DNA of 64,000 bases from Methanobacteriota archaeon (lineage in GTDB: Archaea; Thermoplasmatota; SW-10-69-26; JACQPN01): NCBI GenBank assembly GCA_016207515.1, contig JACQPN010000005.1:12810-76809 (forward strand), given 5' to 3'. The position numbers and the translations under genes are program-made. Positions 884 through 29,296 of the stretch are shown in pieces; position 1 is the first letter of the stretch, and each line of letters starts with the position of its first letter. The notes beneath the pieces are model-generated. The model did no database searches, was not told the origin of the DNA, and saw only the letters and a program-made list of their open reading frames with translations.

Positions 884-3049
884 GTGGTCCGGATGGTCCT
901 TCAAAACGCCTTACTCATCTCCATAGGGTCGGCTGTCGCTGCCGGCCTCGTCGCTAGCGGCTTCGCCTTGACGCTCTCGCGACCCGCCAGTCGCGGGAAG
1001 GACAATGCGGCGCTCGCGGCCGTGTCGAGCGCCGTCGCGACCCAAGTCAGGTGGCTCTACCTTCGCCAAGGACAAATCATTGCGGTCACTTGCGCTCTTC
1101 TAGCCGGCATCGTGGGTGTCTTTGCGACCCCCGAAGCTGGTCTCGCCGTCTTGATAGGCGCGGCCACGACGCTTCTCGTGGGGCTTGCGGCCTTGAACCT
1201 GACAGCGGGCGCCGTGTACCGCGTCGCGCTCCTTTCAAAGGACCAAACGCCCGAAGCGCTGCGTCAAGCGCTGAGGGCGGGGACGGCGATAGGACTCCTT
1301 TCGACGGGCCTCACGCTCGTCGTTGTCGCCGCCACGTTGTTCCTTCTCGGAGGAAGCGCACTTACGGGTGCCGGGCTACCGACGATCGACGCTCTTCTCG
1401 GCTTTGCCCTGGGTGCAGCTACGGTGGCGCTTCTCAACCGGCTCGGTGGCGGGATATTCACGAAAAGCGCCGACATAGGGGCGGACCTCGTCGGCCAGGT
1501 CGAAGCGGGCCTCGCCCCCGACGACCCTCGAAACCCCGCTGCGTTCGCAGATGCATGCGGCGACCAATTGGGTTCCGCCGCGGCGGCCGCCTGCGAATTC
1601 GCCGAAGTCTACGCGACGTCGCTGGTGGCCGCGATGGCCCTCGGGGTCGCGCTCGCGATCGGGGCCGCAAGCGTTCCCGCGGAGATCGACGCGTGGGCGA
1701 GCCTGCCGCTCCTCCTTGGGGCGAGCGGAGTCATCGCTTCCATCATCGCGACGCTCGTCTTCGCGTCGGGCAAGGGCGACACCGTCGCCGGCACGAGGAT
1801 GACCCGGGCGTACGTGGTGGGCGGGCTCGTTTCAGGCGTGGGGGGCTACTTCGTCGTGAGCGTCGCGGTCGGGACCGAGAACATCGGCCTCTACATCGCC
1901 TTCCTCCTTGGCATCCTCGGCGGGATGGTCACGGCACTCCTCTCCGAGAAGTACACGACGCCGTCGGGCAAGAAAGTCGCGGAGATCGCCGAATCCAGTA
2001 AGACTGGAAGCGCCACCAACATCATCGCGGGGCTCGGCAACGGCCTCGAAGCGACGGGTTCGCCGACGATGATACTCCTCATCGTCGTCATAGCGGCCTA
2101 CGCGGCGGGCGTGAGCTACTCGGCCGCCAACTCGCTCCAAGCGGGCATACTCGGCATCGCGCTTTCTGGCGTTGGTCTACTTTCGATCACGGCGATCACG
2201 TTGGGCATTTCCATCAACGCCGCGATAACGGATTGCGCGAACGGCCTATGGGCGCTTTCCGGGAACAAGGGGGGGCAGGCGCGCGAAGCGCTCACGGCGA
2301 GCGGCAAGGGTGCGCTTCCCTACGCCCGCTCCATCGTCGTCGCCTCCTCGTTGTTTGCGGCGCTCTCACTCGTCCTTTTCTTCGGCTGGCGCGTCGGCGA
2401 GGCCTGCGGCACGCAACCCGCAGGAGCGGCGGCCGTGGTGTACAACTACGTCTCCTGCGCCAAGGTGATGACTGGAGGGGCTTTGACCGTGAACATCAGC
2501 GACCCTTACGCCCTCGTCGGTCTCTTCATCGGCGGAATGATGCCTTTCCTCGTCACGGCCCACGTCACCCAGGCGGCCTCCAGGACGGCCGTCGGGATCG
2601 TCACGGAATCGAGGCGCCAATTGAGGGAGCGGCCGAACATCCTCGGCGGCTCCGAGAAGCCCGACTACGACGCGGTGGTCAAGGCGGGTTCAGAGGCAAG
2701 CCTCGCGCAGCTCAGCGTCCCGGCCGTGATCGCTTTGGGCATCCCGCTTCTCATCGGCATGGCGCTTCCCCCGACGGCGCTTGCGGGCCTCATAGCCGGC
2801 GTCACGGCCACCGGGCTTCTTCTCGCCATGATGCTCATCCTTTCAGGGGCCGGCTGGGACAGCGCCCGGCAATCCCTGGAGTTTTCGAAGACCGATTCGC
2901 CGCAGCACAAGGCGTCGGTCGTCGGCGACACCGTGGGCGATTCGTTCAAGGACGCCGCCGGGCCGGCGCTGAACGTTCTCATCCGCGTGACGGCGCTCAC
3001 CGCCATCATCCTGCTTCCCTTCTTCCTCTCTCAGAGCCTCATCAGGTAG
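884..3049 (+). CDS. membrane-bound pyrophosphatase (H+-PPase) homolog, divergent paralog
   Basis: About 16 TM helices. Conserved GGGIFTKSADIGADLVGQVEAG and DPRNPA motifs and a C-terminal VVGDTVGDSFKDAAGPALNVLI motif are present. The canonical DNVGDNVGDxAGMGxDLFESY block is replaced by DACGDQLGSAAAAACEFAEVY. The in-frame ATG at 893 is the likely leaderless start. Confidence 0.75.
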   Translation: MVRMVLQNALLISIGSAVAAGLVASGFALTLSRPASRGKDNAALAAVSSAVATQVRWLYLRQGQIIAVTCALLAGIVGVFATPEAGLAVLIGAATTLLVGLAALNLTAGAVYRVALLSKDQTPEALRQALRAGTAIGLLSTGLTLVVVAATLFLLGGSALTGAGLPTIDALLGFALGAATVALLNRLGGGIFTKSADIGADLVGQVEAGLAPDDPRNPAAFADACGDQLGSAAAAACEFAEVYATSLVAAMALGVALAIGAASVPAEIDAWASLPLLLGASGVIASIIATLVFASGKGDTVAGTRMTRAYVVGGLVSGVGGYFVVSVAVGTENIGLYIAFLLGILGGMVTALLSEKYTTPSGKKVAEIAESSKTGSATNIIAGLGNGLEATGSPTMILLIVVIAAYAAGVSYSAANSLQAGILGIALSGVGLLSITAITLGISINAAITDCANGLWALSGNKGGQAREALTASGKGALPYARSIVVASSLFAALSLVLFFGWRVGEACGTQPAGAAAVVYNYVSCAKVMTGGALTVNISDPYALVGLFIGGMMPFLVTAHVTQAASRTAVGIVTESRRQLRERPNILGGSEKPDYDAVVKAGSEASLAQLSVPAVIALGIPLLIGMALPPTALAGLIAGVTATGLLLAMMLILSGAGWDSARQSLEFSKTDSPQHKASVVGDTVGDSFKDAAGPALNVLIRVTALTAIILLPFFLSQSLIR

Positions 3050-5084: not shown

Positions 5085-5975
5085 GTGCGCATTGAACGGA
5101 ACGGCATCGTTCTCATCGTCGTCTCCGCGGTGTCTTTCGGTGGCGTCGCCGTCTTGAGCAAACTCGTGCTCGAAGGTGGCCTCGACGTCCTGTGCCTTCT
5201 ATTCTGGCGCTGGCTCATCGCGGGGCTAGCGGTGGCGCCCTTGGTCTTGTTCGGCAGGGGAAAGAAGCTACGGCGCCGCACGATCGCGTATGCGTTTGCG
5301 CTTGGCGCCGTCGGGCAGTACGGCACATCGGGCGTGTACACGGAGTCACTTCGTTATCTTCCGGCGGCCATCGCGAGTTTCCTCCTTTTCCTGAGTCCCG
5401 TCTTCGTCGCGGCCTTCTCCGCGATACTTTTCGGCGAGACTTTGACGCGGCGTGGCTTGGCGGCTCTCGCGCTCTCGGTCTTGGGGCTCGCCTTGATGGC
5501 GTTCGCCCCGGGAGGCGAAGCGCCCATCGTGGGGGTCGTTTTGGGCCTTGCCTCCGCGCTCCTTTACGCGTCCACCATCGTCGCCGGGCGCAGGATAATC
5601 GGATCCGGGGACGGCCTTTCGGTGGCCTGGTTTCTCATGCTCGGGGCGACCACCATGTTCGCGGCGACCGCCCTGGCAAGCGGTGGCCTACACGGCCCAA
5701 CGAGCGCAAGCGTCTGGTCCGAGCTCGTGGTGCTCGGTGTGGTCAGCACGGCCTTGAGCATCGGGACCTTCTACGTGGGGCTCCCCCTCGTCGGCGCCCC
5801 GAAGGCGGCGCTTGTGAGCACCCTTGAGCCCGTGAGCACGCTGATCCTCGCATTCCTCGTCCTTGGGGAGAACCTCACGATCGCCCAATACGCGGGCGCC
5901 GGCCTCATCTTGGCCGCCGTCGCGATCGTAGCGACTGAGAAGAAAGGCGCTCCACCCGGGCCGCCGATCCCTTAA
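5085..5975 (+). CDS. EamA/DMT-family transporter
   Basis: Ten predicted TM helices in two 5-TM halves. Gly/Ala-rich and hydrophobic throughout, typical of EamA. Confidence 0.65.
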   Translation: MRIERNGIVLIVVSAVSFGGVAVLSKLVLEGGLDVLCLLFWRWLIAGLAVAPLVLFGRGKKLRRRTIAYAFALGAVGQYGTSGVYTESLRYLPAAIASFLLFLSPVFVAAFSAILFGETLTRRGLAALALSVLGLALMAFAPGGEAPIVGVVLGLASALLYASTIVAGRRIIGSGDGLSVAWFLMLGATTMFAATALASGGLHGPTSASVWSELVVLGVVSTALSIGTFYVGLPLVGAPKAALVSTLEPVSTLILAFLVLGENLTIAQYAGAGLILAAVAIVATEKKGAPPGPPIP

Positions 5976-5987
5976 GGCGGAGTCCCC

Positions 5988-6884
5988 TCACGTCCTACGC
6001 GGTCGCGAGGCGCCCGAGCCTGTCTCCTTGATGAACGTCCCCTCGCGGTACTCCTCGAGCGCCGTCTCGATCTCCCGCTTCGTGTTCATGACGATGGGAC
6101 CCCACCAAGCGACCGGCTCGCCCAAGGGTTTTCCAGAGACCAGGAGGAAACGTGTCGGCCTCGGTCTTGCCGTCGCGCGAACGGTGTCTCCTGCTCCGAG
6201 GATCGCCAAGTGCTCTTGCGGGACGACGGACTCCTTGCCTTCGCCAAAATCGACGCTTCCTTCTAGAACGTAAGCAAGCGTTGTGTGACTCTTCGGGATC
6301 GCGTGTTCGAACGTCGCGCCAGGTCCGAGGGTCACGTCAAGATACGAGGGGTCCACGACGATGTCCCGGACCGGCCCCTTGACGCCCGCCAACTCGCCGG
6401 CGATCACTCGCGCCCTCTTCTCGGGCGTCGCGATGATGGGGATCTCGGGCGCCTTGATCTCCTGATAACGCGGCGGCATCATCTTCTTTCGCGCCGGAAG
6501 GTTCACCCACAATTGGAACCCGCCCATGCCGGTGCCAGAGGCCGGTCTTGGCATCTCCTGATGGACAATGCCGCTACCCGCCGTCATCCATTGGACGTCG
6601 CCCGCGCCGATCGTGCCCTTGTTCCCCATACTGTCCTCGTGATCCACCCGACCGTCGAGCATGTACGTCACCGTCTCCATCCCGCGGTGGGGATGCCACG
6701 GGAACCCCGCGACGTAATCGAGGGGGTTTTGCGAGCGGAAATCGTCGAGGAGAAGGAATGGGTCGAGACGAGGGACCTGGTCGTGGCCGAAGGCGCGCTT
6801 GAGGCGGACACCGGCGCCTTCGATTGCGGCGCGAGCGGGGAGGATCTCAGCGACGGGGCGGGTCGGTTTCTTCGCAGCGGCCAT
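5988..6884 (-). CDS. pirin-family protein (bicupin, quercetin 2,3-dioxygenase-like)
   Basis: HPHRGMETVTYMLDG...GDVQWMTAGSGIVHQE cupin metal-binding motifs, and a second cupin domain. Confidence 0.9.
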   Translation of the reverse strand: MAAAKKPTRPVAEILPARAAIEGAGVRLKRAFGHDQVPRLDPFLLLDDFRSQNPLDYVAGFPWHPHRGMETVTYMLDGRVDHEDSMGNKGTIGAGDVQWMTAGSGIVHQEMPRPASGTGMGGFQLWVNLPARKKMMPPRYQEIKAPEIPIIATPEKRARVIAGELAGVKGPVRDIVVDPSYLDVTLGPGATFEHAIPKSHTTLAYVLEGSVDFGEGKESVVPQEHLAILGAGDTVRATARPRPTRFLLVSGKPLGEPVAWWGPIVMNTKREIETALEEYREGTFIKETGSGASRPRRT

Positions 6885-7083
6885 AACAATAGGGATTCGG
6901 CGGACACGGTATATAGAGGCTGAGTTACTGGAAGGGTGGGGGCGCGCCGAGGACCGGAGCGGAACCCAAGGTTCTGCTAGGCCGACGGGAGCCCCGAGCT
7001 CCCCTACGGAGGCCAGAAGTCTCCAACGTTACGTGGCCGCGGCCATGCGTGCGCTCGAACTCTGCAAGATTCCTGATAGTGAG

Positions 7084-7117
7084 CGCGCCCGTCGAGATTA
7101 TCGCGTGGATTTGCCGG
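7084..7117. repeat. att-like repeat copy A (cgcgcccgtcgagattatcgcgtggatttgccgg)
   Basis: Its first 16 nt match the reverse complement of the tRNA-Arg 3' end (14294-14309) with one mismatch. It has 2 mismatches to copy C and 3 to copy B over 34 nt. Confidence 0.6.
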
Positions 7118-7261
7118 CATGGACATCCGGACTCTGATGGCGGGTTGGGGTGCAGCGGTGGCGTCGCCCGGAAATTCACTTTGCTTGGTCCGCGCCCCTG
7201 GTCGGCGCTCGCCAATTGCGCGATTCCGAGACTGTTCGTGGAAGGGTTTTCCGCCTTAAGG

Positions 7262-7280
7262 CGTATTCTTTATATATTAT
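7262..7280 (+). promoter_or_regulatory. TATA box (tctttatatattattacg) for the AbiEi/AbiEii-like operon 1
   Basis: Strongly AT-rich box ending about 20 nt before the track start at 7299, in an otherwise 65% GC context. Confidence 0.45.
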
Positions 7281-7298
7281 TACGTCCTAAGACGTATT

Positions 7299-7922
7299 AT
7301 GGCTGGACGCTCGCGCGGGTTCATTCACTACTGCGAGCGCCTCTTCCTGGAAACGGATGCGCCCGTCCGATCGACCCGTCTCTGGCACGAACCCGGCACC
7401 ACAGCGTCGACGGTGCACCAATGGATCCGCCACTTGCGGTTCCACCGAGTCATGACCCCTGTGGACGGCGGCCATCGGATCGATCGCGTGAGGCTCTTGC
7501 AAGTGCTCGCGGCCCATCGCATCGCCCGCATCCAGCCCGTACATGAAGGCGCGGTTGCCTTGGATGCTCGCGGCTTCTCTCAGGTCTTGAGCCAACGACG
7601 CATTCCGCACGCGCTCTGCATGCTGTCCGCCGCGAACGAGTGGACATTCTTTGAGCCGCGCTATGCAATCGACGTCTACGTCCGACGGGCCGATGCCCCG
7701 CGCGTGAGAGCCCTCACAACGGTAGGCCGCTACCGCGTGAACCTCTACGCCGAGAATCTCGGCGAGGTCCCGACGCGGGAGAGAGATGGCGTCCCCATCA
7801 CCGACCTCTTCCAGACGCTCATTGATTGCCGGGCTCACCCCGAGGGTGGAGCACATGCGCAGTTCCTGGAACGAGTTTTGTTAGACAGGGCGAAGGTGAC
7901 GCATGGGGCGGCGGCCAGGTGA
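7299..7922 (+). CDS. AbiEi-like transcriptional regulator / antitoxin (wHTH + C-terminal AbiEi-type domain)
   Basis: N-terminal wHTH-like segment (TASTVHQWIRHLRFHRV). C-terminal motif GVPITDLFQTLIDC resembles the conserved ...ERTLLDL.. block of AbiEi/COG5340. It overlaps the downstream nucleotidyltransferase gene by 20 nt. Confidence 0.5.
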   Translation: MAGRSRGFIHYCERLFLETDAPVRSTRLWHEPGTTASTVHQWIRHLRFHRVMTPVDGGHRIDRVRLLQVLAAHRIARIQPVHEGAVALDARGFSQVLSQRRIPHALCMLSAANEWTFFEPRYAIDVYVRRADAPRVRALTTVGRYRVNLYAENLGEVPTRERDGVPITDLFQTLIDCRAHPEGGAHAQFLERVLLDRAKVTHGAAAR

Positions 7923-8688
7923 TGCGCACCGCGAGCTCGTGGACCCCCGGGCGTACGAGGTCGTCCGCCTCGTGATATCGCGCCTCGAGGAATGGGAGAC
8001 GGAGTACGTCCTCGGCGGTGGTTGGGCCGTGTACGCCTATGGGTCCCGTGTGCCGAGTGCGGATACAGACGTCTTCTTTCCCGACGCTACTGGGCATGTC
8101 GTAGTCGAGCGGCTGGCTTCCGAGACAGGCATCACGACGGGGCAAGGCGCGCAGTTGGAGGCATTGAGCCTCGACGGCTTCAATTCCATTCTTGGACAGG
8201 ACCCGGATTTCGGGGAACCAGACCTCGGTTACGTTCCACGAGGCCTGCTTGCCGGGCGCGTCCTTCGACGAAAGTTGGTCCTTGAGACAGAGACCGTTCA
8301 AGCCCGCGTGCCAACGGCTTCCGCATTGGCTTTCATGAAATTGAAGTCGTTCCACGACCGCGACATGGCGTGGCAAGCACTACGCGACCCGCTCGTCATG
8401 TCGGGGCTCCACCCGAGTGAACGCGGTATCGTCAGGGCGAAAGCGGAGTCCTACTACTATCGGAAGGCGGGCAAGGATCTCTATGACATCGCCTTCCTTT
8501 GCTCGGCCGCGTGCAAGCTGTCGGACTCTCTCGAAATCTCGGCAGAATTCGGGCTTCGCGAAGCTCTCCGGGCGCCGCTTGAAAACGTGGCCCCACAGCT
8601 GATGAATTTCGCGCTCGACCTGGCCGGAGGCGACCGGGCCACCGAGACGCTGCTACGAGATCTGGAGAACGAGCTGCCCAAATCATGA
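7903..8688 (+). CDS. AbiEii-like nucleotidyltransferase (type IV TA / abortive-infection toxin family, DUF1814-like)
   Basis: Pol-beta-fold signature GGGWAVYAYGSRVPSADTDVFF (hG[GS]x9-13DhD). The later block MKLKSFHDRD is shared with the paralog at 9756-10580. Confidence 0.6.
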   Translation: MGRRPGDAHRELVDPRAYEVVRLVISRLEEWETEYVLGGGWAVYAYGSRVPSADTDVFFPDATGHVVVERLASETGITTGQGAQLEALSLDGFNSILGQDPDFGEPDLGYVPRGLLAGRVLRRKLVLETETVQARVPTASALAFMKLKSFHDRDMAWQALRDPLVMSGLHPSERGIVRAKAESYYYRKAGKDLYDIAFLCSAACKLSDSLEISAEFGLREALRAPLENVAPQLMNFALDLAGGDRATETLLRDLENELPKS

Positions 8689-8794
8689 AAAAGAGCGAGC
8701 TACGGGCAAGTCCGAGTTCGACCAGGTTTTGCGCGGAATTCGGATTGATTCACGGGTTTCCCTCATGAAAAATATTATCCGTACTACTTTATGA

Positions 8795-8828
8795 CGCGCC
8801 CGCCGAGATTATCGCTTGGATTTGCCCG
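8795..8828. repeat. att-like repeat copy B (cgcgcccgccgagattatcgcttggatttgcccg)
   Basis: 16/16 identity to the tRNA-Arg 3' end, plus an 18-nt arm shared with copies A and C. Similarity to copy C extends to about 62 nt (8767-8832 vs 9665-9730), including an AT-rich gaaaaatattatc left arm. Confidence 0.65.
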
Positions 8829-8883
8829 TAACGCCACGACAAAGACGATAGGCCGCGTCCCTTTCATGATCGCGGTTCGGAAC

Positions 8884-9201
8884 CTAACGACGACCCTTTC
8901 GGTCGCTCCTGCCCGAGCCCGCCGGAATCGGATTCCGGATACGATCAATATCCGCCACAAGGACCTCCCTTACGACCGCGTGGTCCGTGTTCAACTTGAA
9001 CAGCCTAGACCGACCCAGTACCCTGGTTTCCACGACCAAGCCCTGGGCCAAGAGTTCCGACAGGTCCGCGTAGATCGTGGGTCTCGATATTCCCGTCGCT
9101 TCCGCGAGTTCTGTGATCGGGTAGTCCATGCTCGGGTGGTCTCCCAGAAAGTCGAGGAGCCTGTTCCGCGGACTCTCCCCGAACATCTCTGCAAAACCCA
9201 T
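8884..9201 (-). CDS. winged-helix transcriptional regulator
   Basis: ITELAEATGISRPTIYADLSELLAQGLVVE is a classic wHTH recognition helix and wing. 105 aa. Confidence 0.6.
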   Translation of the reverse strand: MGFAEMFGESPRNRLLDFLGDHPSMDYPITELAEATGISRPTIYADLSELLAQGLVVETRVLGRSRLFKLNTDHAVVREVLVADIDRIRNPIPAGSGRSDRKGRR

Positions 9202-9262
9202 ATTACATCAACGTAAAGCACTGTATACGTCAAACTATTTAGATGTACGCCCTTGTCCCGTC

Positions 9263-9541
9263 GTGCGAAGGCTCGATGCGCGAGAGGCCGCCATCTGTTT
9301 CAAACTCTACCGACACGGCCGCGTCGGCGCCGGCCACATCCTCATTGACAACCTGGTGAAGGGCTTCCCCAGTCATGAATTGGGCGAAATCCGAGACTCC
9401 GTGGAGAAACTCATCCGGGATGGCGTTCTGGTGCCAAAAAGCACAGCCCATGGGAAGGCGGTCTACGTCAACACCCGACTCCGGCTCGACGTCTACGACA
9501 GGATACGCGAGCACAAGGATTTCGCGTGGCTGCCGAAATGA
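9263..9541 (+). CDS. possible small wHTH-like protein (start uncertain, GTG at 9263)
   Basis: C-terminal part of track ORF 9128-9541. EIRDSVEKLIRDGVLVPK resembles a wHTH wing. The 5' part of the track ORF overlaps the minus-strand regulator, so a later GTG start is proposed. Confidence 0.25.
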   Translation: MRRLDAREAAICFKLYRHGRVGAGHILIDNLVKGFPSHELGEIRDSVEKLIRDGVLVPKSTAHGKAVYVNTRLRLDVYDRIREHKDFAWLPK

Positions 9542-9692
9542 TGCTGGCGCGGCGCAACGTCGGACATCGGATTCCGTCCCGCCGATGGATGCCGTGTTAC
9601 GGGCAAATCCAAGTTCGAACGCCTTTTCAGCCGAGGGCGTAATGTGTTTCCGCGCTTCTTCTTGGAAAAATATTATCACGTTTAGTTTATAA

Positions 9693-9726
9693 CGCGCCCG
9701 CCGAGATTATCGCTTGGATTTGCCGG
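9693..9726. repeat. att-like repeat copy C (cgcgcccgccgagattatcgcttggatttgccgg)
   Basis: 16/16 identity to the tRNA-Arg 3' end, plus the shared 18-nt arm. See copy B. Confidence 0.65.
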
Positions 9727-9755
9727 TAAACCAAGTGCGTCGTTCCATCGGTTGT

Positions 9756-10580
9756 TTACTGTTTTGGCGCTAAGGCCAGTGGAGCGACGACGGCCCGATA
9801 GTCGTTGAGGGAAACGTCCAGATGACCAAGAGCCTTTGTCAAGTATTGGCTGCCGAGGACGGTCCGGACCCTGGTCGAGGCGTCGGGTAAGAGCCGGTGC
9901 ACGGCCTTTCGCATGGCGAGCGCGTCGGAGCCTCCGTGGGCGGCAAGGGCAAACAGATCGCAAAGGTCCTTCACCGCTTTGTCGTCCTTGGTCCGGTCGG
10001 GGAAACTGTGGAGTTTGGTGGCGACGAGGAGCGGCGTGGAGGGAAGGCACACGCTTGGCGCAAAGCCGGAGGCCCGCGGGTCGGGATCCTCCTCGGTGAA
10101 GGCCGTGGCAAGAAGGGGCTCGTCGATTGGGTCGAAACCGAGAATCTTGCGAGAGAGTGGGTGCCTCGCGGTGACCATCGGGTCCACGTAGAGCAGATGG
10201 TAGTGCACGTCCTCGATGCCCACCTTGGGCTCGACGCCCAAGGCCTCCCCCTGTTCATCCAACACCAGCCGGAAACGGAAAGCGCCCGAAGGCTCGAACC
10301 CCAGTTCGCGCAGGCGGTGCGGGGCCTTTGCCGCCGCACTTTTTGAGAACACGTCGGAGGACCACAGCGGGTCCACGAAATAGGCGAGATCGATGTCCCG
10401 GCTTCCGAAGTATTCCTGACCAAACGCGTTCTGCCACCCGTCTCTTACACGTAGGCGGACGGCGTGACCCCCGGCTAGCGCGACCGGGGTGGGGAGATCG
10501 TTCACGAGGGCGCTCAGGCGTCTTTCGCTCTCCCTGGTCAGGAGATTATCGTACACGGGCGTTGGCGACATGGTGCTCAC
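9756..10580 (-). CDS. AbiEii-like nucleotidyltransferase, paralog 2
   Basis: LAGGHAVRLRVRDGWQNAFGQEYFGSRDIDLAYF NTase signature. The KLHSFPDRTKDDKAVKDL block parallels paralog 1. It overlaps its upstream partner by 35 nt. Confidence 0.6.
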   Translation of the reverse strand: MSTMSPTPVYDNLLTRESERRLSALVNDLPTPVALAGGHAVRLRVRDGWQNAFGQEYFGSRDIDLAYFVDPLWSSDVFSKSAAAKAPHRLRELGFEPSGAFRFRLVLDEQGEALGVEPKVGIEDVHYHLLYVDPMVTARHPLSRKILGFDPIDEPLLATAFTEEDPDPRASGFAPSVCLPSTPLLVATKLHSFPDRTKDDKAVKDLCDLFALAAHGGSDALAMRKAVHRLLPDASTRVRTVLGSQYLTKALGHLDVSLNDYRAVVAPLALAPKQ

Positions 10581-11310
10581 GTTCGATCAGGAGTTCGGCG
10601 GCCTCGGCGGCGCTGCCGCCTTCCTGGAGGAGATCAACTATTACTTGCGGCAGCGGGGCGACGGGAATCTCTTTCCCGCCGACCTTTCGGACGCTGCGCT
10701 CGTCACGGACTAGGCTGTACGGGGCCGGGATCAGGCGGAAGTTCGAGCCACCGAGTTGTCCGCCCGCCTCTTCGAGGATGAGGCGTCTGGCTCGAAACAC
10801 GAAACCTCCATCCTCGACGAGGCTTGCTGCCTGGTAGTCGAGGTCGGCGGGTATGTACACATCCATGCGTCGCGGAAAGAGGTGGCCTGCGTACGCGTTC
10901 TCGGCGTAGTACGTGGTGGCCATGGCGGTAAGCGACACGAGGTCTTCTCCATCGTACATGTGGAGCGGCACTGGCGCTTTATCCAACAAGAGGAGCGCCT
11001 TTACGGGATCCGGCACGAAGAAGCCGAACCCGCGGGCCGGTTTTCTATGGTCCGCCCACCACCGATATGTTGCGGGCGCGTCGATGACGGTGATCGGCGG
11101 ACCGAGATCGATGAGACGCGCTGACGCGAGCTCATGGGTGATCTGGTGGGCCCACGAATAGGCGGTCTTCGCCGTCATGGCGAGCGCGTTGACGGAACGA
11201 AGGGCTTCCCTGGAGTAGCGAGGTAACGAGAGTGATCGGCCCGCGGCGCCTAGCAGGTGGCGCATCACGGTGTCGCGGGCTGGACTAGACCACTTATCTG
11301 CATTTGACAC
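10546..11310 (-). CDS. AbiEi-like regulator/antitoxin, paralog 2
   Basis: N-terminal HTH-like region. C-terminal IPVAPLPQVIVDLLQEGGSAAEAAELL matches the AbiEi C-terminal ..ERTLLDL.. type block. Confidence 0.5.
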   Translation of the reverse strand: MSNADKWSSPARDTVMRHLLGAAGRSLSLPRYSREALRSVNALAMTAKTAYSWAHQITHELASARLIDLGPPITVIDAPATYRWWADHRKPARGFGFFVPDPVKALLLLDKAPVPLHMYDGEDLVSLTAMATTYYAENAYAGHLFPRRMDVYIPADLDYQAASLVEDGGFVFRARRLILEEAGGQLGGSNFRLIPAPYSLVRDERSVRKVGGKEIPVAPLPQVIVDLLQEGGSAAEAAELLIEREHHVANARVR

Positions 11311-11348: not shown

Positions 11349-11912
11349 TTAAATACTTTGCAGATAACTACGCTTGGGCTTGGTCGAGACTTCAAAACAG
11401 AGGCTGCCCCGCGCGCACCATCGGCAGGTTGCGCCGGCCGGCGGTGGCGGGTCGAGGGCCAGGACATGGGCAACGTCGTCGAGGAAGGGCATGAACGCTT
11501 CGTCGTCCCTCTTCATCTCCACCCACGTTAGCGACCCGTCCAAGGACGCCTTGCCCTCCGCGTTGGCGTCGAATGTCGCCGGCGAGAAGCACAGCAGCCC
11601 CATGCGCTTCACGGGCGCGGCCGCGAACTGCCTCGCCGCCGGCTTCTCGAGCGCAATCGCGTAGGCGTGCAATTGCCGCGCGTAGAGCGCGATGTGTGCG
11701 TCCTTCGGGTCCGTGGTCTTGAAGTCGATGACGCAGTAGGTCCCGTCGTCGAACTTGATCAGGGTGTCGAAGATGCCTCTCAGGACTATCCCGCGCGACT
11801 CGCCGATGATTATCGGTTGGCTCTCCACCCACTGCCCCGCATGGGCGAACCGTCCGGGCGGCAGCCCCAGCCCAAGGTCGTCCGTCCGCGTCCCCATGAA
11901 ACGCGCCTTCAT
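11349..11912 (-). CDS. Cas4/RecB-like PD-(D/E)XK nuclease with Fe-S cysteine cluster
   Basis: Motifs GIFDTLIKFDDG (D), CVIDFKT (D-x-K) and YARQLHAY (QhxxY). C-terminal C-x2-C-x5-C (CRWCARGSLC) is as in Cas4/AddB nuclease domains. No N-terminal Cys is visible, and the in-frame upstream extension has no usable start. Confidence 0.55.
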   Translation of the reverse strand: MKARFMGTRTDDLGLGLPPGRFAHAGQWVESQPIIIGESRGIVLRGIFDTLIKFDDGTYCVIDFKTTDPKDAHIALYARQLHAYAIALEKPAARQFAAAPVKRMGLLCFSPATFDANAEGKASLDGSLTWVEMKRDDEAFMPFLDDVAHVLALDPPPPAGATCRWCARGSLCFEVSTKPKRSYLQSI

Positions 11913-12166
11913 CGCAGCGCTGGCGGAACCTTGGGTTCCGCCGCGCCGTGCGCAAGCCCGGCTTGCGCGACGGCATCGATGGTCGTGAAGATCTTGGGGA
12001 AGGGCGATGGCGGGCGACGGATCCCCTGGACCACTTTGAGGTAGAAGCAGCGCTTACACTCTTCCCAGAGGAAGGCGATATCCAGAGCCCGTAAAGAACG
12101 CGTCGGCGCCAGCGCCGTCGGTCCATCGTGTGTCTTTGCCAAAAAGAATTTTGTTGCCGGCGGAAA

Positions 12167-14146
12167 TCATACTACGGGCAATCCTACGTCTTGCAGGTAC
12201 CCAAAGGTCGGATCGTAGAATTCCGGCTTTCTCGTGGCGTCCGCCGCGTCCCCTTCTGGGACAACAATAATCATCCCTTGCCGGGCACGCGTCATGAGTA
12301 CGCGGTAGGCGTTCTTCAGATAGAGTTTTCTTTCGGGTGACTTGATCCGTTTCCACTGATCGCCATGAAACGACCAATGATCCCAACCCTTCTCATGGTA
12401 TCGTAAGTCCGCGTCCCATGCAACGCACGTCCAATCGAGTTCTAATCCCTGAACATGAAATTCCGTGGCTACGTCCTCCAAGTAGTACGAGGACCGGACG
12501 TCCTCTTTTCCATCTAAAAACCAATGCACGGGATCGACCGGCGATCGAACGTGGATGGCATGCGGTTTCAACCGCTCGGCTTGCGAAGAGACAACTATTC
12601 CGTACCGCTCCGACCCTCGGGCCTTCTCTTTCAGCCATGACTTGGCCGTACCCAAGCTCCGGGTCAATACAATCGGATAGCGGTCGGCTTGCCGAATCGA
12701 ACGCCGGGCGCCATCCAAATCGACGTCCAAGATCTGCTTCACGAGCAGTGAAACGTTCTCCGCTCGAAACGAACGCATCGACGTGGCAAGGTGGAGCTCC
12801 GACTTCATCGTCACGTTCGGTCGCGGGCCAAGTGAATCGATCGCTCGTCCCGCCGCATATTCGGTGTCATGTAAGCGCGGCGAAATGAAAATGCCCCAAT
12901 CGGGGTAAGATCGATTAAGTGATTCAATCCATTCGCTTATCCCGGCCTCGCCCGTGTTTATTTCTTGGCCTCCGCCTACGAGACAAATCACGACTGCCCA
13001 ATCCGGGTGCCGATCGAGGCACGAGATGAGGAATTCCGGCTCTGACATGGAAAACCCCGGACGCTGCTTCTTGCGACTCATGAACGCAGCTGTTTGCTTC
13101 CGGTTCCACGCACGCTGGGCTTCATCGAAGATTGCGACGCGCTCGATCGGGGGCCCGTCGTCCTTCAGGCATTCATCCCGGAAATTGTGGATATTTTGAA
13201 TGAACGCCTTAACGCGGCTCCGCGTTTCCCCGAGTCGGACCGAGTGCCCGGCCTCGTCCGACCGTCGCTTCTGGTCACGGGCAAGCGCTTCGCGCAGTAT
13301 CTTGACGAGTGGGCCGTTTCCGGACAGATATACTGCATGCAATTCGCTCTTGGCATCCATGTGCTCGGTCGCAACATTGAGTCCGACGAGCGTCTTGCCC
13401 GCGCCGGGGACGCCTGTGACAAAACAAATCACCTTGCGCGATTCCCCCCGGGCGGAATCTATTATTTCGGACAGAAGATGCGATGTCGCGGAAAGATTCA
13501 CCGCGCCGCCGTCGCTTCTCGCGATTTCGGTTACAGAGTGATTCCCGTAAAGCGCACACGCCGCCTCGATGATTGTTGGGGTCGGCCGATACCGACCGGA
13601 CGTCCATGCCCGCCGGTCTATTCGCAGACCCGGCGCCCGGGCCAGGATTTGACGCATGGTGGGTCCGAATGTCCGGAGGTTTGCGCGAATCGGGTCGAAC
13701 AGACCGTCGTTCAACCTTTCGGAAAGAACAGGCGACTCGGGGTCGCTCGCGCCTGTCGCGATCAGGACCGGTACAATGAAGGCGTGATGGCTGGCCTCAT
13801 GGAAATTCTTGAGGTCTAGCGCATAATCCCAAACTTGTTCAATGGCATGGCGAGGAAACGTCTTCTCGCCAACCTTGAATTCCAGAACGAGGATCACAGA
13901 GTCGAGAACCAGCACAACGTCAATCCGACGGCCCATCCTGGGAATCACGTACTCGAAAAAGATGGCACCATCCATGTTCCCGAGTGCCGCCTGAAGAAAA
14001 CCCACCTCTTCACGCCATGCGGCAAGCTGCGCTTCCGTTGGTGGAAGGCCGACTTGGCTTGCCTCAGCGGCCAGACGGTCGAGGATTGCGCTCCCATCGG
14101 CCTTGGAGAAGTCCGTGATTTCGCTGGAGTAAAAAGCCCGGTCCAT
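12167..14146 (-). CDS. DUF2075-type protein: N-terminal PD-(D/E)XK (Mrr/NERD-like) nuclease + P-loop ATPase + SF1-helicase-like C-terminal domain
   Basis: Nuclease motif [21 protein letters not shown]. Walker [11 protein letters not shown] and Walker [10 protein letters not shown]-terminal [15 protein letters not shown] resembles the UvrD-type helicase motif VI region. Confidence 0.7.
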
Positions 14147-14293
14147 CCGTCCCGTCGAAGGGTGGCAGCCGATATGAAGGCTGGGATCGACGCGATGACG
14201 CGGAGGAACGTCCGGTCATGCTTGCGTCGCCTGGACCCCGTAATACCGAGATCCATGATCGGGCGAGGCGGGTGGCGTCGCAATTGCTCTTAG

Positions 14294-14367
14294 CGCGCCC
14301 GCCGAGATTCGAACTCGGGTCCTGAGGTCCGGAACCTCATGTCCTATCCAAGCTAGACTACGGGCGC
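14294..14367 (-). tRNA. tRNA-Arg (anticodon CCG), 74 nt, no encoded CCA, no intron
   Basis: Manual cloverleaf: acceptor GCGCCCG/CGGGCGC, D-stem GTCT/GGAC, anticodon stem TGAGG/CCTCA with loop TTCCGGA, T-arm CCGAG-TTCGAAT-CTCGG, discriminator G. TATA (GTTATATC) lies about 29 nt upstream. Confidence 0.8.
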
Positions 14368-14392
14368 AGTAAGGGGGCGGATTCCGTACCTC

Positions 14393-14403
14393 GATATAAC
14401 GTT
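14393..14403 (-). promoter_or_regulatory. TATA box of tRNA-Arg
   Basis: gatataacg on the forward strand (GTTATATC on minus), centred about 29 nt upstream of tRNA position 1. Confidence 0.5.
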
Positions 14404-14535
14404 GCCCTTGCTTTTCAGAACGGCTGGCCGGAGTTTTTCCGTGCACCCTAGCGGAACCTTCAGTTCCGCTGGGGCTAGGGAAGCTTCGCTTCCCTGCGCC
14501 GCTTTTTGCCGCTTGACGGCAAAAAGGGTGCTGTG

Positions 14536-14560
14536 CCTATCCAAGCTAGACTACGGGCGC
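14536..14560 (-). repeat. duplicated 25-nt tRNA-Arg 5' segment (positions 1-25: acceptor 5' strand + D-arm)
   Basis: 100% identical to 14343-14367. A promoter-like duplicate, about 80% identical to the tRNA TATA region, lies at 14657-14700 but is separated from the fragment by about 95 nt of hairpin-rich sequence. Confidence 0.6.
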
Positions 14561-14775
14561 CTGAAGCGGAGCGAAGCTCCGCGAAGCCCCGGGGACGAGG
14601 CCCGAAGGGCCGAGTCCACGAGGGCACGCGGGTTCGCCCTCAGGCGAAGCCGCGTGTAAGGGCCGGATTCCCTGCCCAGATATAACGGTGTCCCTGCGGT
14701 TCGAGATGGTTGGCAGATTCCTCCGGGGATGCGACCAATGGAGGTGACGTCGTTAGATGCTGGCGAGCGTTATTG

Positions 14776-20069: not shown

Positions 20070-21182
20070 TCAGAACGTGCTGGGTCTCGACGTCGTCTGG
20101 TTGGGCCCACCCGACGGCGGCGCCGGCGGCAGATGCGTGAGTACGTCGTGCTCGAAGCCGAAATTCATGGTGGGTTCGCCCCCGAACGTCGTGTCCCAGG
20201 AGAAGAACACCTTGTACTTCCCGAAACCCGCCTCGTTGAAGTTCGGCCGGTAGAGGGTCATCTTCTGCGCCTGTACGGGCGAGAACGTGCCCATCACCAT
20301 GCGACCGTCGGGCCCCGTGACCCACATGGAGGGAATGACCTTCGATGGGCCCCGGTAGGTGAGACCGAAGGAGGCCCGCCGCGTCTCGTTCGTCACTTGG
20401 AACTCGTGTAGGAGCATCGGTTGTTGGTCGGTCGCGTTCACGCTCTTGGCGACGTTTCCGGATTGCGAGTAGGTGTCCGTCGTGTTGAACGGCATCAGCA
20501 TGTACACACCCGTCACCGAGGATGCCTGCGGACCGCCCGTGACGAGTTGCAGCTGTGCTCCTTGGGCGCCGCTGCCGGCCGAGGTCGAAAGGACGGCGAG
20601 ACCGATGTTTCCCCGGTTCCCCTTCTCGTGCATGAAGCCCCCTCGGGGAAGTTCGAGGCTTGCGGTCACGGTCACCAGTTGCCCCGGGGCGAGTGTCTGC
20701 GGCAGGTCGAACGTGGCCCCCGCCACGTAGCTGTCCTCGAAGCCGCTGAAGACGAACGCTACCGGCCGGGGATTCGTCGGATCGAGAGGCGGGAAAGTCA
20801 CGATCTTGTCGGTCGTGAAGGTCATGGTGGCCTTCAAGGGCTCGATGTAATGGATGTTGTTCCCCGATGGGCTCGTGAACCACGGGTGCGGGAAATTGCC
20901 GGAAGTGAACTCCTGGACGCCGTCGACGGCGACGGCGACCTGTCTTTCGGGTCTTACGCTGTCAAAGCCGTGGTCGGGCGTGAAGTAGGCCGTGAAAGGC
21001 CGTTCTACAAAGAATTCGTTACCGGCCTCGTCGGTGAAATTGTGGACGGGCCCGCCGGCGATATCCGTCGCCAATGGTGGCGTCGTGACGAGGTCCCCGG
21101 TGGTCACGTCCCCCGTGTCGATGCACCCGGAAAGGACCGCCGGGACCATAATGAGACAGGCTACGAGGGCGCTGGATCTCAT
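20070..21182 (-). CDS. secreted lipoprotein with beta-sandwich repeats, unknown function
   Basis: Start re-assigned to MRSSALVACLIMVPAVLSGC (signal peptide plus lipobox-like site). TATA-like element about 25 nt upstream (21205-21215). Confidence 0.5.
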   Translation of the reverse strand: MRSSALVACLIMVPAVLSGCIDTGDVTTGDLVTTPPLATDIAGGPVHNFTDEAGNEFFVERPFTAYFTPDHGFDSVRPERQVAVAVDGVQEFTSGNFPHPWFTSPSGNNIHYIEPLKATMTFTTDKIVTFPPLDPTNPRPVAFVFSGFEDSYVAGATFDLPQTLAPGQLVTVTASLELPRGGFMHEKGNRGNIGLAVLSTSAGSGAQGAQLQLVTGGPQASSVTGVYMLMPFNTTDTYSQSGNVAKSVNATDQQPMLLHEFQVTNETRRASFGLTYRGPSKVIPSMWVTGPDGRMVMGTFSPVQAQKMTLYRPNFNEAGFGKYKVFFSWDTTFGGEPTMNFGFEHDVLTHLPPAPPSGGPNQTTSRPSTF

Positions 21183-21330
21183 CTTGAAGGTGCTTATACC
21201 GGCCTTCCTATAAAACCAGTCTAGTCGGATGCCTTGAACATCCTCCACGGAGCAGGGACATCGATTCTCGCCTCGGGTAGCCGCGAAGCGTGCAGAAGCC
21301 GTCGCGCTCCGGCCCGTTTTCAAGCAGCCG

Positions 21331-23272: not shown

Positions 23273-25312
23273 ATGGCCGACCTCACCCCCTACGCCTTGG
23301 AACTGTCCCTTGCGGCCGCCGGCGTCGCACTCGTCTACGCGATCTACCTCACGATGAGGATACTCCGGCAGGACGAGGGCTCCGACAAGATGAAGGCCAT
23401 CGCACAAGCCATCCGTGAAGGCTCCATGGCGTACCTTGCGCGCCAGTACAGGACCATAGCCATCATCGCTGTCGCGGTGGCCGTCCTCTTAGCCGTCTAC
23501 CCGCCGCTCGGTCCCGTGGCCGCCGGCGCCTTCATACTTGGAGCCGTCCTTTCGGCGCTCGCAGGGTATGCCGGCATGCTCATCGCCATCCGGGCGAACG
23601 TCCGCACCGCGCGCGCCGCCGAACGCGGCGTCGGGCCCGCCATGGACCTGGCTTTTTCGGGCGGCACCGTCACGGGCATGGCCATCGTAGGGCTAGGGCT
23701 CTTCGGGATTGCCGGCCTCTACATGGTGCTTCGCGACGTGAACCTCCTTATCGGATTCGGGTTCGGAGCCTCGCTCATCTCGCTTTTCGCCCGCGTGGGC
23801 GGCGGAATCTACACGAAAGTCGCGGATGTCGGGGCGGACCTCGTGGGAAAACTCGAAGCGGGAATACCGGAGGACGACGCCCGTAACCCCGCCGTGATCG
23901 CGGACAACGTCGGCGACAACGTCGGCGACTGCGCCGGCATGGGTGCCGACCTCTTCGAATCCTACGTCGTCACTTTGATCGCGGCGATGATTCTCGGAGC
24001 GCTCACGGTTGGAAAGACCCTGAACGGGTTCGTCGTCGGCGACGAAGTGGTGCTGCTCCCACTCATCATCGCGGCCGGCGGCATCGCCGGGAGCATCCTC
24101 GGCAGCGTCTTCGTGCGCCCAAAGACCGAGGCCAAGATCTGGCCCTCCCTCAACGTGGGGATATACGTCGCCGCGGGCGTCTCGGCCATCCTTATCTACG
24201 TGGCGACGCTGGGGCAGCCGAACGGGGTGCAATACTTCCTCGCGGCCTCCGTCGGGATACTCACCACCATCATCATCAGCCACATCACGGCTTACTACAC
24301 GTCCACCGACAAGCCGCCGGTGCGCGAACTCGCCGAGCTCTCGAACGGCGGCCCCACGGCGAACGTCCTTTTCGGCCTCGGGATCGGGTTCCGAAGCACG
24401 ATACTCCCGATCCTCACCATCTCCGCGGCGATCCTCATCTCCTACCAACTCGCGGGGATCTACGGCATTGCACTTGCCGCCATGGGCCTCCTCTCGGTGA
24501 CCGGCATCATCATGTCCATCGACAGCTACGGGCCGATAAGCGATAATGCCGGCGGCATCGCCGAGATGAGCGGAATGTCATCCGACGTGCGTAAGGTCAC
24601 CGACGCGCTCGACGCTGTTGGAAACACAACGAAGGCGACGACCAAGGGGGTCGCGATCGCTAGCGCGTCGATCAGTGCCCTCGCCCTCTTCACGGCGTTC
24701 ACGCAAGAGGCAAAACTCGGGGACGTGAACCTCTTCGCTATGCCCGTCCTCGTCGGCCTCATCATCGGAGCGACGGTGCCGCTCGTCTTTTCCGCGTGGG
24801 CGATGCAGGCGGTGGGCCGAAGTGCGAACCTCATGGTCGAGGAAGTTCGCCGCCAGTTCCGTGAGATCCCCGGTATCATGGAAGGGACGGCGAAGCCAGA
24901 CTACGCAAGGTGTGTCGACATCTCGACGCAAGCGGCCATCCGGCAACTTGGAAGGCTCGGCGCCATCGCAGTCATCCCACCAATAGTCATCGGGCTTCTC
25001 TTGGGACCTCTCGCCCTGGCAGGTTTCCTCGTCGGAAGCATCCTCACCGGACAGCTTCTAGCCTACACGCTCTGCAACGCGGGCGCGGCATGGGACAACG
25101 GCAAGAAGTACATCGAACAGGGTAACCACGGTGGAAAGAAGAGCCCCGCGCATCAGACCGCGGTCATCGGAGACACCATCGGCGACCCTGCGAAGGACAC
25201 TGCGGGACCCGCGATAAACAGCCTCATAAAGGTCATCAACACGGTGAGTCTGCTCCTCGCGCCCTTGCTCGCCGGGTTGACGATCGCGGCATACATACCG
25301 GGATGGTCATGA
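23273..25312 (+). CDS. hppA: H+-translocating membrane pyrophosphatase, canonical, K+-independent type
   Basis: GGGIYTKVADVGADLVGKLEAG, DNVGDNVGDCAGMGADLFESY, AYYTSTDKPPVRELA and AVIGDTIGDPAKDTAGPAINSLIKV are all canonical. GNTTKATTKG has Lys at the K+-dependence position. Confidence 0.9.
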   Translation: MADLTPYALELSLAAAGVALVYAIYLTMRILRQDEGSDKMKAIAQAIREGSMAYLARQYRTIAIIAVAVAVLLAVYPPLGPVAAGAFILGAVLSALAGYAGMLIAIRANVRTARAAERGVGPAMDLAFSGGTVTGMAIVGLGLFGIAGLYMVLRDVNLLIGFGFGASLISLFARVGGGIYTKVADVGADLVGKLEAGIPEDDARNPAVIADNVGDNVGDCAGMGADLFESYVVTLIAAMILGALTVGKTLNGFVVGDEVVLLPLIIAAGGIAGSILGSVFVRPKTEAKIWPSLNVGIYVAAGVSAILIYVATLGQPNGVQYFLAASVGILTTIIISHITAYYTSTDKPPVRELAELSNGGPTANVLFGLGIGFRSTILPILTISAAILISYQLAGIYGIALAAMGLLSVTGIIMSIDSYGPISDNAGGIAEMSGMSSDVRKVTDALDAVGNTTKATTKGVAIASASISALALFTAFTQEAKLGDVNLFAMPVLVGLIIGATVPLVFSAWAMQAVGRSANLMVEEVRRQFREIPGIMEGTAKPDYARCVDISTQAAIRQLGRLGAIAVIPPIVIGLLLGPLALAGFLVGSILTGQLLAYTLCNAGAAWDNGKKYIEQGNHGGKKSPAHQTAVIGDTIGDPAKDTAGPAINSLIKVINTVSLLLAPLLAGLTIAAYIPGWS

Positions 25313-28135: not shown

Positions 28136-29296
28136 TTACGCAGGAACATCCTCCCAATGCCACATTCGTAATTCACCCCACTGGACCGTTAGAAAGGGAC
28201 GTACGATTCCCGGAGTCAGATGCGAATCCCTTCGAACCTCGGTCAGGCTCGGGAACGATTCCATCTCCCATGAGGCACCGTATTGGCCGGCGACGGACGA
28301 CCCCTCGCTCGGAATGAATACGCTCGCCCACACCGCTCCCGTTTCGTTTGTCGCGAGTGAGTGATAGGGGATGGCGCTTCCGAACGCCGGCGATGGAATC
28401 ACATCGAATTCCCAAATCGGACCGGTTTTCATGGCGTGTATTAGGGCGCGTTGGCCCGAGCTGTTGCTGACGGGAGTCCCATCGAACGCGAGGTGGATTA
28501 GGTCGCCGACGCCCATTGTGATGGAGCACCTGCGAGAATGGAACGGTCGCACCAAAACGATTTCCTCATTCCAAAGCGAGCCTGGGTGTCCCCATCGGTG
28601 AATGACTCCGCGATGATCAACGTAACAGACATGCAGATGGTCGTTCTCGCCAGAGGAAAAATCCGGGAACGAAGTGGAGAGTCCCACTGGTTCGGCGTGC
28701 CACGCTCCGTCCAGTCGGCTCAGGATTTCCCAAGTTCCCCGAATCCCCAAGACATGGGGCGTCCCATCAGGCGTAACCTCGACGGCTTCCGGTTTGAAGC
28801 GCAGGGGCAATAGATCGACCGCCAACTCCTCGGTCACCCAATTCCCCTCTGTCGATTTCGTCGAGTAGTACACGAATGACGTGGGTGGGAGAATTGGGCT
28901 GAGAATCTCATAGTATGCCCAGATGTGGGGCACTCCCTGAGGACCAAGAGCGATGAAAAGGTTGGGATTGATGGGGTTCGAAGGTAACCTCATGACTTCT
29001 TCGAATGGCGCACCGTCGAGAGGGTCCGCGGAGAACATGATTCGATGAGTATTGTCGTCGTTGTAATCGTGAAATACGACGGCAGGCCTTGATCTATTCC
29101 AGGTAGCCGCCGCTACATCGAAAACGTAAACGCCTTCCGCATTGAATGGGGGGTAGAAGGTCGTCAAGATCCATTCCCCGGGCTCGGAGCTACCGGGCTG
29201 GGGCGATCCTGCGCCTGTGACGGGCCCGAAGATGGCGGTTGAAACCAGCGCGATGGCTACAACCACGATGATTGCGGGTGGCCCCCTGCCCAGCAT
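28136..29296 (-). CDS. secreted hypothetical protein (beta-propeller-like)
   Basis: N-terminal signal/TM (PPAIIVVVAIALVSTAIFGP). W/G/H-rich beta-strand repeats. Confidence 0.4.
   Translation of the reverse strand: MLGRGPPAIIVVVAIALVSTAIFGPVTGAGSPQPGSSEPGEWILTTFYPPFNAEGVYVFDVAAATWNRSRPAVVFHDYNDDNTHRIMFSADPLDGAPFEEVMRLPSNPINPNLFIALGPQGVPHIWAYYEILSPILPPTSFVYYSTKSTEGNWVTEELAVDLLPLRFKPEAVEVTPDGTPHVLGIRGTWEILSRLDGAWHAEPVGLSTSFPDFSSGENDHLHVCYVDHRGVIHRWGHPGSLWNEEIVLVRPFHSRRCSITMGVGDLIHLAFDGTPVSNSSGQRALIHAMKTGPIWEFDVIPSPAFGSAIPYHSLATNETGAVWASVFIPSEGSSVAGQYGASWEMESFPSLTEVRRDSHLTPGIVRPFLTVQWGELRMWHWEDVPA

Follow-up and report, generated by a model that had tools for sequence, protein, structure and literature searches.

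A tandem array of integrase-less, attachment-site-bounded cassettes beside a tRNA-Arg gene in a Thermoplasmatota-like metagenome-assembled genome

How did three small groups of unrelated genes come to lie one behind another beside a single tRNA gene, bounded by copies of the same short repeat? The question is raised by a stretch of 64,000 nucleotides of the archaeal contig JACQPN010000005.1 (positions 12,810 to 76,809; assembly GCA_016207515.1), hereafter the window. Next to its sole tRNA gene, which encodes tRNA-Arg(CCG), lies a tandem array of cassettes bounded by attachment (att) sites and lacking an integrase. The sequence belongs to a Thermoplasmatota-like metagenome-assembled genome (MAG); the flanks of the island hold archaeal housekeeping genes, and the nearest named relatives are Thermoplasmatota. 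We consider it probable that the repeats are displaced 3′-end fragments of the tRNA gene, left behind by at least three successive site-specific integrations of related elements that shared one attachment site.

A degenerate pattern for the 34-nt repeat has exactly three matches in the window (7084-7117, 8795-8828 and 9693-9726; copies A, B and C), all of them on the + strand, and none in 100 dinucleotide-preserving shuffles, even with three mismatches allowed. This bears out the three positions given in an earlier reading of the DNA made from its letters alone (the sequence-only reading). The copies vary at three sites: C/T at core position 9, T/G at position 22 and C/G at position 33. The identity of the first 16 nt to the 3′-end of the tRNA gene, claimed in the same reading for the T-stem, acceptor and discriminator, also holds on re-alignment; this core agrees with copies B and C at 16 of 16 positions and with copy A at 15. 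Read in the sense of the tRNA, it consists of AAT (end of the T-loop), CTCGG (3′ strand of the T-stem), CGGGCGC (3′ strand of the acceptor) and the discriminator G, and so spans tRNA positions 58 to 73. Five sites in the window match the 16-mer with up to two mismatches, where 0.32 would be expected; the one at 34333 (two mismatches) is located within a lipoate-ligase gene and was taken as a chance match.

Around cores B and C the similarity extends to units of about 135 nt with a common layout: an 18-nt left arm, some 50 nt of variable sequence, a 28-nt AT-rich box, the 16-nt core, ATCG and an 18-nt right arm, which is an inverted repeat of the left arm over 17-18 nt. Alignment of the copies, which had been proposed as a means of separating core from arms, gives a core of 16 nt with arms on both sides of it in B and C. 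The two units align over 142 columns with one 1-nt indel and are identical at 103 of these (73%), including the far-left 18-nt block; the stretch of about 62 nt previously thought to be common to them was therefore too short. Conservation is mosaic, amounting to 15/18 in the left arm, 27/51 in the middle, 21/28 in the AT-rich box, 16/16 in the core and 20/22 in ATCG plus the right arm (36/38 for core plus right arm). Such a pattern has the look of constrained binding blocks rather than of a recent duplication. Between two single-nucleotide differences (G8793 and C8827 in B, A9691 and G9725 in C) the units are identical over 33 nt. The left arm of C reads GTTACGGGCAAATCCAAG (9596-9613), and B carries a version identical at 15 of 18 positions (8699-8716). 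Further copies of the unit may be recognised by the motif TTACGGGCAAATCCAAG or its complement; across the 64 kb the arm motif is confined to the cassette boundaries.

A unit of about 135 nt that is non-coding, has an AT-rich interior and ends in 17-18-nt terminal inverted repeats might itself be mobile, as a non-autonomous transposon resembling miniature inverted-repeat transposable elements (MITEs) that inserted three times into a pre-existing island, its tRNA match having been captured or being a coincidence. We regard this as very improbable. Target-site duplications, or direct repeats of any kind, are absent from the unit ends, and instead of being dispersed through the 64 kb the copies are confined to the 7.2 kb that follow the matching tRNA gene on its downstream side, all in its orientation. 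Copy A would in addition have been cut off at precisely the base equivalent to the tRNA discriminator, and variation in the arms follows the cassettes rather than the units (see below).

Poorer still are the chances that the unit is a functional intergenic module (a small RNA gene, a bidirectional terminator or a regulatory site) copied by gene conversion or duplication, with a fortuitous similarity to the tRNA. The AT boxes do resemble archaeal TATA boxes, the arms can pair, and unit C has a terminator-like hairpin (9619-9640) and fold z-scores of −3.1 and −2.5. However, this hairpin is not conserved in B, for which the z-scores are −0.9 and −0.4; the two units share only the long-range pairing of the arms and not an internal fold, Rfam offers no matching family up to E 5, and homologues of the cargo operons occur without the unit. 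A 16-nt match to the tRNA end, running up to the discriminator and found three times on the right side and in the right orientation, is not expected by chance. The units are situated between convergent gene ends, at distances of 12-55 nt from the stop codons; they drive no gene, and none lies in front of their AT boxes.

The case for serial integration comes from the points at which similarity stops. When B and C are combined in an nhmmer profile, its match to copy A is limited to the stretch that begins with the first core base and extends to the right (profile positions 100-136; window 7083-7119), and its match to the tRNA junction is limited to the core (profile positions 97-117; window 14290-14310). 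Since A is similar to the right of the core, the tRNA junction at the core alone, and B and C on both sides, two independent breakpoints delimit the same 16 nt, and the block that they bracket ends at the tRNA discriminator. Coinciding breakpoints are a prediction of serial site-specific integration into a regenerated tRNA gene, which this four-way comparison of sequences supports; the proposal in the sequence-only reading of an intact proximal tRNA with nested scars is thereby strengthened. All three displaced fragments are of the 3′-end type, are found at lower coordinates than the − strand tRNA gene (downstream of it) and are co-oriented with it.

The arms are distributed in a congruent manner. 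Both are present in the two internal copies, while the left arm is absent from the outermost copy, as predicted for a junction with the chromosome. We would read copy A as the oldest displaced tRNA fragment, made up of the ancestral flank, the core and the right arm of element 1, and unit B as the left arm of element 1, the core and the right arm of element 2. The presumed ancestral flank (6885-7083) adjoins housekeeping genes and has no homology to the left arms of B and C. Divergence rises outward, copy A being the most diverged. Set against the left arm of C, the right arm of B is complementary at 18 of 18 positions, that of C itself at 16 and that of A at 13. The left arm of C thus pairs best with the arm at the other end of cassette 2, from which it follows that the arms co-vary by element and not by unit, a pattern resting on two informative positions only. 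Perfectly complementary ends of cassette 2 would be as expected of the attP of one element.

The repeats, breakpoints, orientation, arm symmetry, cargo and absence of an integrase can be seen directly; the recombination events, their order and the enzyme that we infer from them would be as follows. The attP site would measure about 135 bp and comprise an 18-bp left arm, about 50 nt of variable sequence, an AT-rich box, the 16-bp core equivalent to the tRNA 3′-end, ATCG and the inverted 18-bp right arm. A crossover within the core would split the tRNA gene, after which the core of the element would regenerate it, and each newcomer would use the regenerated gene and displace older elements outward. 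With F for the flank downstream of the tRNA, L and R for the arms and numbers for the elements, the ancestral F-core-tRNA′, on receiving attP sites of the form L-core-R, would become F-core-R1...L1-core-R2...L2-core-R3...L3-core-tRNA′. Copy A would then correspond to F-core-R1, unit B to L1-core-R2 and unit C to L2-core-R3. Only compact toxin-antitoxin or defence operons would remain between the sites. The recombinase, presumably a tyrosine integrase, was found in neither island nor window and would either have been lost or act from elsewhere, and in the innermost 4.6 kb a later rearrangement or an unrelated insertion would have removed L3. The features of the locus are listed in Table 1.

Table 1. 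Features of the cassette array and its surroundings (positions in the window)
Feature	Position	Strand	Remarks
Presumed ancestral flank downstream of tRNA	6885-7083	.	Displaced 7.2 kb; contains the promoter of the pirin gene
Copy A, outermost junction	7084-7120	+	Core (1 mismatch) and right arm only
Cassette 1 cargo	7299-8688	+	Overlapping 207-aa and 261-aa genes; weak Pfam/PADLOC AbiEi/AbiEii-like (nucleotidyltransferase) matches
Unit B	8700-8832	+	Left arm 8700-8716, AT-rich box 8767-8794, core 8795-8810, ATCG, right arm 8815-8832
Cassette 2 winged helix-turn-helix (wHTH) regulator	8884-9201	−	Pfam HTH families; PADLOC Csa3-like matches
Cassette 2 partner, ~92 aa	9263-9541	+	Divergent from the wHTH gene
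Unit C	9596-9729	+	Left arm 9596-9613, AT-rich box 9665-9692, core 9693-9708, spacer, right arm 9713-9729
Cassette 3, distal pair	9756-11310	−	AbiEii-family nucleotidyltransferase (274 aa) and overlapping upstream 254-aa partner; Pfam PF08843, PADLOC AbiEii
Split Cas4-like PD-(D/E)XK nuclease gene	11349-12142	−	C-terminal part 11349-11912, N-terminal part 11909-12142
DUF2075 / Schlafen-group-3-like helicase	12167-14146	−	PF09848 at 7.6e-82; PADLOC candidate defence family PDC-S41, 921 bits
16-nt core within tRNA	14294-14309		Reads CGCGCCCGCCGAGATT; last 3 nt of T-loop through discriminator
Intact tRNA-Arg(CCG) gene	14294-14367 (start 14293/14294)	−	ARAGORN and Rfam RF00005, 59.3 bits; putative regenerated integration target, proximal end of array
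Exact copy of first 25 nt of tRNA-Arg	14536-14560	−	25/25, E 4e-7; 193 nt upstream, same orientation
Diverged copy (73%) of tRNA promoter region 14374-14428	14660-14714	−	About 100 nt further upstream of the tRNA than 14536-14560

Several observations weigh against serial integration. The left arm that should adjoin the tRNA gene was not found in the proximal junction (14147-14293), and the nhmmer profile detects no degenerate arm there or inside cassette 3. The simple model therefore needs an extra event at this end, and the 4.6-kb "cassette" is probably composite or rearranged. The identity covers three of the seven T-loop bases, so that the crossover cannot be placed within it. Searches of all plausible island open reading frames (ORFs) with Pfam, PADLOC and PHROGs revealed no integrase, transposase or other recombinase, nor did a Pfam scan that covered about 70% of the genes called elsewhere in the window, mostly those above 170 aa, reveal a recombinase. 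Only about 570 nt of the island lie outside genes and units; with so little sequence left to assign, no remnant of an integrase can be made out. Neither a free attP nor a related unit, an empty site or a different arrangement turned up in viral contigs, GTDB representative genomes, JGI metagenomes, phages, plasmids or Logan unitigs. Finally, the evidence comes from a single locus in one MAG.

The individual searches were as follows. The 23-mer at the junction of core and right arm has no exact match in the viral contigs, GTDB representative genomes or JGI metagenomes. The 3′ half of the tRNA, used to seek relatives or empty sites, has none in genomes. In viral contigs there were no matches to the pattern of core plus AT box or to a core-independent arm-to-arm pattern. 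Two metagenome matches to the latter were dismissed as chance, one being within a bacterial phosphoribosyl pyrophosphate synthetase gene and the other a low-GC palindrome on a contig lacking ORFs. BLAST comparison of the unit with phages and plasmids, a check already proposed for the repeat, was likewise without a match, as was that of the 261-aa protein of cassette 1. Logan unitigs (SRR12113385) end exactly in the repeats, cassette 2 forming a 925-nt unitig (window 8797-9721) that occurs in a second sample too; this confirms the repeats and is uninformative on circles or variants. Repeats of this kind break short-read assemblies at the cassette borders, and such arrays are therefore easily missed or mis-joined in MAGs.

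What lies between the sites? The core-to-core spacings of 1711, 898 and 4601 give cassettes of 1.7, 0.9 and 4.6 kb and an array of 7.2 kb in total. The gene pair of cassette 1 is read from the + strand and has its own TATA-like box at about 7269-7282, cassette 2 is divergently transcribed, and the genes of cassette 3 are on the − strand. The GC content of the island is 0.601, compared with 0.62-0.64 for its flanks, and falls to 0.566 in cassette 2. The sequence-only reading had described each cassette as possessing its own promoter and complete genes and lacking an integrase; the sizes, the promoters and the absence of an integrase stand, but the genes are not all complete, since the Cas4-like gene is split across two frames. 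Cassettes 1 and 3 both carry AbiE-like pairs, and the idea that they are paralogous copies was rejected on the basis of BLASTP (E 0.56 and 0.045). On these comparisons, the cassettes have boundaries in common, not content.

In cassette 2 the partner of the wHTH regulator has no family match in Pfam, PADLOC or PHROGs. The public gene call in this cassette (L004) is instead a 146-aa antisense ORF (9239-9679, −). It is the ~92-aa gene on the opposite strand that is conserved beside the wHTH gene in four homologous contigs (L014-L016 and L019), and hence the deposited annotation is probably wrong.

Within cassette 3 the AbiE-type pair comes directly after the shared right arm of unit C. The PF12705 match of the Cas4-like gene covers profile positions 112-246 only, and PADLOC also gives Cas4 matches. 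The motif CKRCFYLK is found in the N-terminal ORF, and the C-terminal 187 aa are in the other frame. From its sequence this gene is probably a frameshifted pseudogene, the alternative being an assembly error. The DUF2075 helicase gene adjoins the tRNA without an intervening left arm, and its GC content at third codon positions (GC3) is 0.64, as against about 0.79 typical of the window.

The cargo of cassettes 1 and 2 has homologues on other archaeal metagenome contigs, where the gene pairs occur as self-contained modules. None of the contigs with cassette 1 nucleotidyltransferase homologues (L005-L008) or with cassette 2 wHTH homologues (L009-L016 and L019) carries a unit or a recognisable integrase. 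The cassette 2 pair and its divergent promoter are conserved without the unit in L014-L016 and L019; in the closest relative, L019, homology spans the divergent promoter and both genes and ends at the stop codon. As the homologues stop short of the units, the unit is not part of the cargo operons.

Two of the cassette 1 homologues have settings of their own. On the JGI contig L005 the pair adjoins terminase and portal genes and is bracketed by 300-nt direct repeats (8914-9213 and 11629-11928; 85% identity) which duplicate the 3′-end of the portal gene, suggesting a different insertion mechanism for the same module. On the 7.5-kb contig L008 the homologous pair (5467-7095) stops 25 nt short of the 3′-end of a tRNA-Glu(TTC) gene, a geometry like that of the window. 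Neither an integrase nor a displaced piece of the tRNA was recognised on L008; its other tRNA match is an 11-nt chance one.

The compactness of the cassettes bears on whether they ever possessed an integrase. They may have been mini-cassettes from the start, each consisting of one operon and a 135-bp site, excised as circles and captured at the tRNA gene or at the units by a recombinase acting in trans from another part of the genome or from a helper element; we judge this unlikely, though less so than the two rival origins of the unit considered above. The gene ends approach the arms to within 12-55 nt, cassettes 1 and 2 are free of pseudogene debris and keep both arms (those of cassette 2 being the perfect 18/18 pair), and three integrase-less cassettes occur in a row. 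Conserved boundaries around unrelated cargo, and the occurrence of the cargo operons as self-contained modules in other contexts, would also fit. On the other hand, neither the window nor the collections searched yielded a helper integrase, a free circle or a second array. When an island decays, toxin-antitoxin modules are what should be expected to survive, and decay is evident in cassette 3 (the split Cas4-like gene and the missing arm) as well as in the mutations of the element 1 arms and the copy A core. To our knowledge there is no description of such elements from archaea, which also speaks against it. In addition, archaeal integrated elements tend to lose their integrases (PMC8371274), which favours relics. 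Doubtful as it is, mobilisation in trans would make the array an archaeal, tRNA-anchored analogue of integrons and cis-mobilizable elements (CIMEs), the tRNA 3′-end serving as attI.

A few further observations concern the surroundings of the tRNA gene and the rest of the window. The perfect repeat of the 25 nt with which the tRNA gene begins (14536-14560) may be a 5′-side scar of a separate event or a local duplication; in the former case the tRNA would have been hit from both sides. Between this fragment and the diverged copy of the tRNA promoter region is a GC-rich, hairpin-rich stretch; no Rfam match was obtained here. A hairpin with a 7-bp stem, GCGGAAC-N5-GTTC(C/T)GC, has three copies in the 64 kb, all of them at or within the island: at 6959-6977 (125 nt left of copy A), at 11923-11941 (inside the split Cas4-like region) and at 14451-14469 (84 nt upstream of the tRNA). 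Its recurrence may be due to chance (16-nt match, E ~0.1). Two genes for H+-translocating pyrophosphatases (PF03030) are found within 25 kb of each other (884-3049 and 23273-25312). Neither the 386-aa product of 28136-29296 (−), a gene of island-like low GC3 (0.64), nor the 417-aa product of 20070-21323 (−) has a Pfam or PADLOC match.

The locus is a precisely delimited case of a small defence and toxin-antitoxin island assembled alongside a tRNA gene, from a Thermoplasmatota-like archaeon about which little is known. The putative 135-bp attachment site, with its arms, AT box and 16-bp core, could be used to seek the cognate integrase and free elements. Were the cassettes mobilised in trans, archaea would have a new way of shuffling defence modules; were they relics, addiction and defence operons would outlast the deletion of the rest of an integrated element.

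How does the array compare with known systems? The Islander algorithm calls islands in tRNA genes (tDNAs) by rules on the configuration and orientation of gene fragments (PMC4383910), and tandem arrays arising from re-use of one att site are documented in bacteria and archaea (PMC4383910, PMC6563490, PMC8371274). As in Islander tandem arrays, an intact tDNA is accompanied here by displaced 3′-end fragments of the same gene, which reach the discriminator, lie downstream, are co-oriented and mark island ends; the regenerated site would have been re-used. The identity block also falls in the attachment subsites of this class, the T-loop and the T-acceptor junction. The array (7.2 kb) and cassette 3 (4.6 kb) are inside the Islander length range of 2-200 kb, whereas cassettes 1 (1.7 kb) and 2 (0.9 kb) are below it. 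Unlike Islander arrays, the innermost junction is without the shared arm, and the integrase (PF00589) required in every member was not found; for the latter reason the array is not a formal Islander island. Loss of the integrase after integration is documented in archaea (PMC6563490, PMC8371274).

The tycheposons of Prochlorococcus integrate serially, displacing older elements outward and leaving partial tRNAs (10.1101/2020.12.28.424599). Newcomers at the tRNA gene of the island, partial tRNAs from older events and cargo for defence or adaptation are points of likeness. Tycheposons differ in carrying tyrosine recombinases, replication modules and remnants of fragmented integrases, none of which was found here; the present array has an archaeal host, and its sequence is unrelated to theirs.

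CIMEs of Firmicutes form by site-specific accretion (PMC5704250) and are a category in ICEberg 2.0 (PMC6323972). Like these, the cassettes are bounded by att sites, carry no recombination or transfer genes, are arranged in tandem at a tRNA-type site and have internal att sites that a related integrase could use. Cassettes 1 and 2 have the structure by which CIMEs are defined, with the core and arms on both sides of only toxin-antitoxin or regulator genes. They differ in their archaeal host, their much smaller size and a mobilisation that is putative. No helper, that is a related element with an integrase for the same att sites, was detected in the window or in public collections.

An integron-like cassette array had been offered as an alternative in the sequence-only reading, and integrons are known in archaea (PMC9668308). 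The small size of the cassettes, their unrelated cargo, the inverted ends of the separating repeats (about 60-140 nt) and the lack of an adjacent integrase recall integron arrays, in particular clusters of attC sites lacking integron integrases (CALINs). The comparison fails on IntI, on the attC motifs and their variability, and on the requirement for promoterless, co-oriented cassettes. No tyrosine recombinase, and hence no IntI, is adjacent to the array, though CALINs need none. The sites are near-identical in sequence rather than in structure only, contain the 3′-end of a tRNA and abut that tRNA. The unit ends 5′-GTTACGG...CCGTAAC-3′ show the motifs of attC (5′-RYYYAAC...GTTRRRY-3′) in reversed order, and a reading as cassette ends gives 5/7 positions. 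Integron cassettes are mostly promoterless, co-oriented and served by a common promoter, in contrast to the individual promoters and mixed orientations seen here.

Class I integration of the Sulfolobus spindle-shaped virus (SSV) type partitions the integrase gene (PMC7253208, PMC8371274). An archaeal host, a tRNA target and the possibility of elements becoming trapped in the chromosome are shared with the present locus. In SSV-type elements, however, the integrase ORF itself contains the att site and is left as int(N) and int(C) at the borders, whereas here the 3′-ends of unrelated genes are 12-55 nt away. ORFs that cross the cores overlap real genes in other frames; coverage of SSV-type integrases by Pfam is uncertain. 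Taken together, the array is the ordinary footprint of repeated insertion at one tRNA gene, unusual only in its tiny, integrase-less cassettes. Its overall kind is already known, and what distinguishes it is the putative 135-bp site in an unstudied lineage and cassettes that are unusually small, clean and integrase-less.

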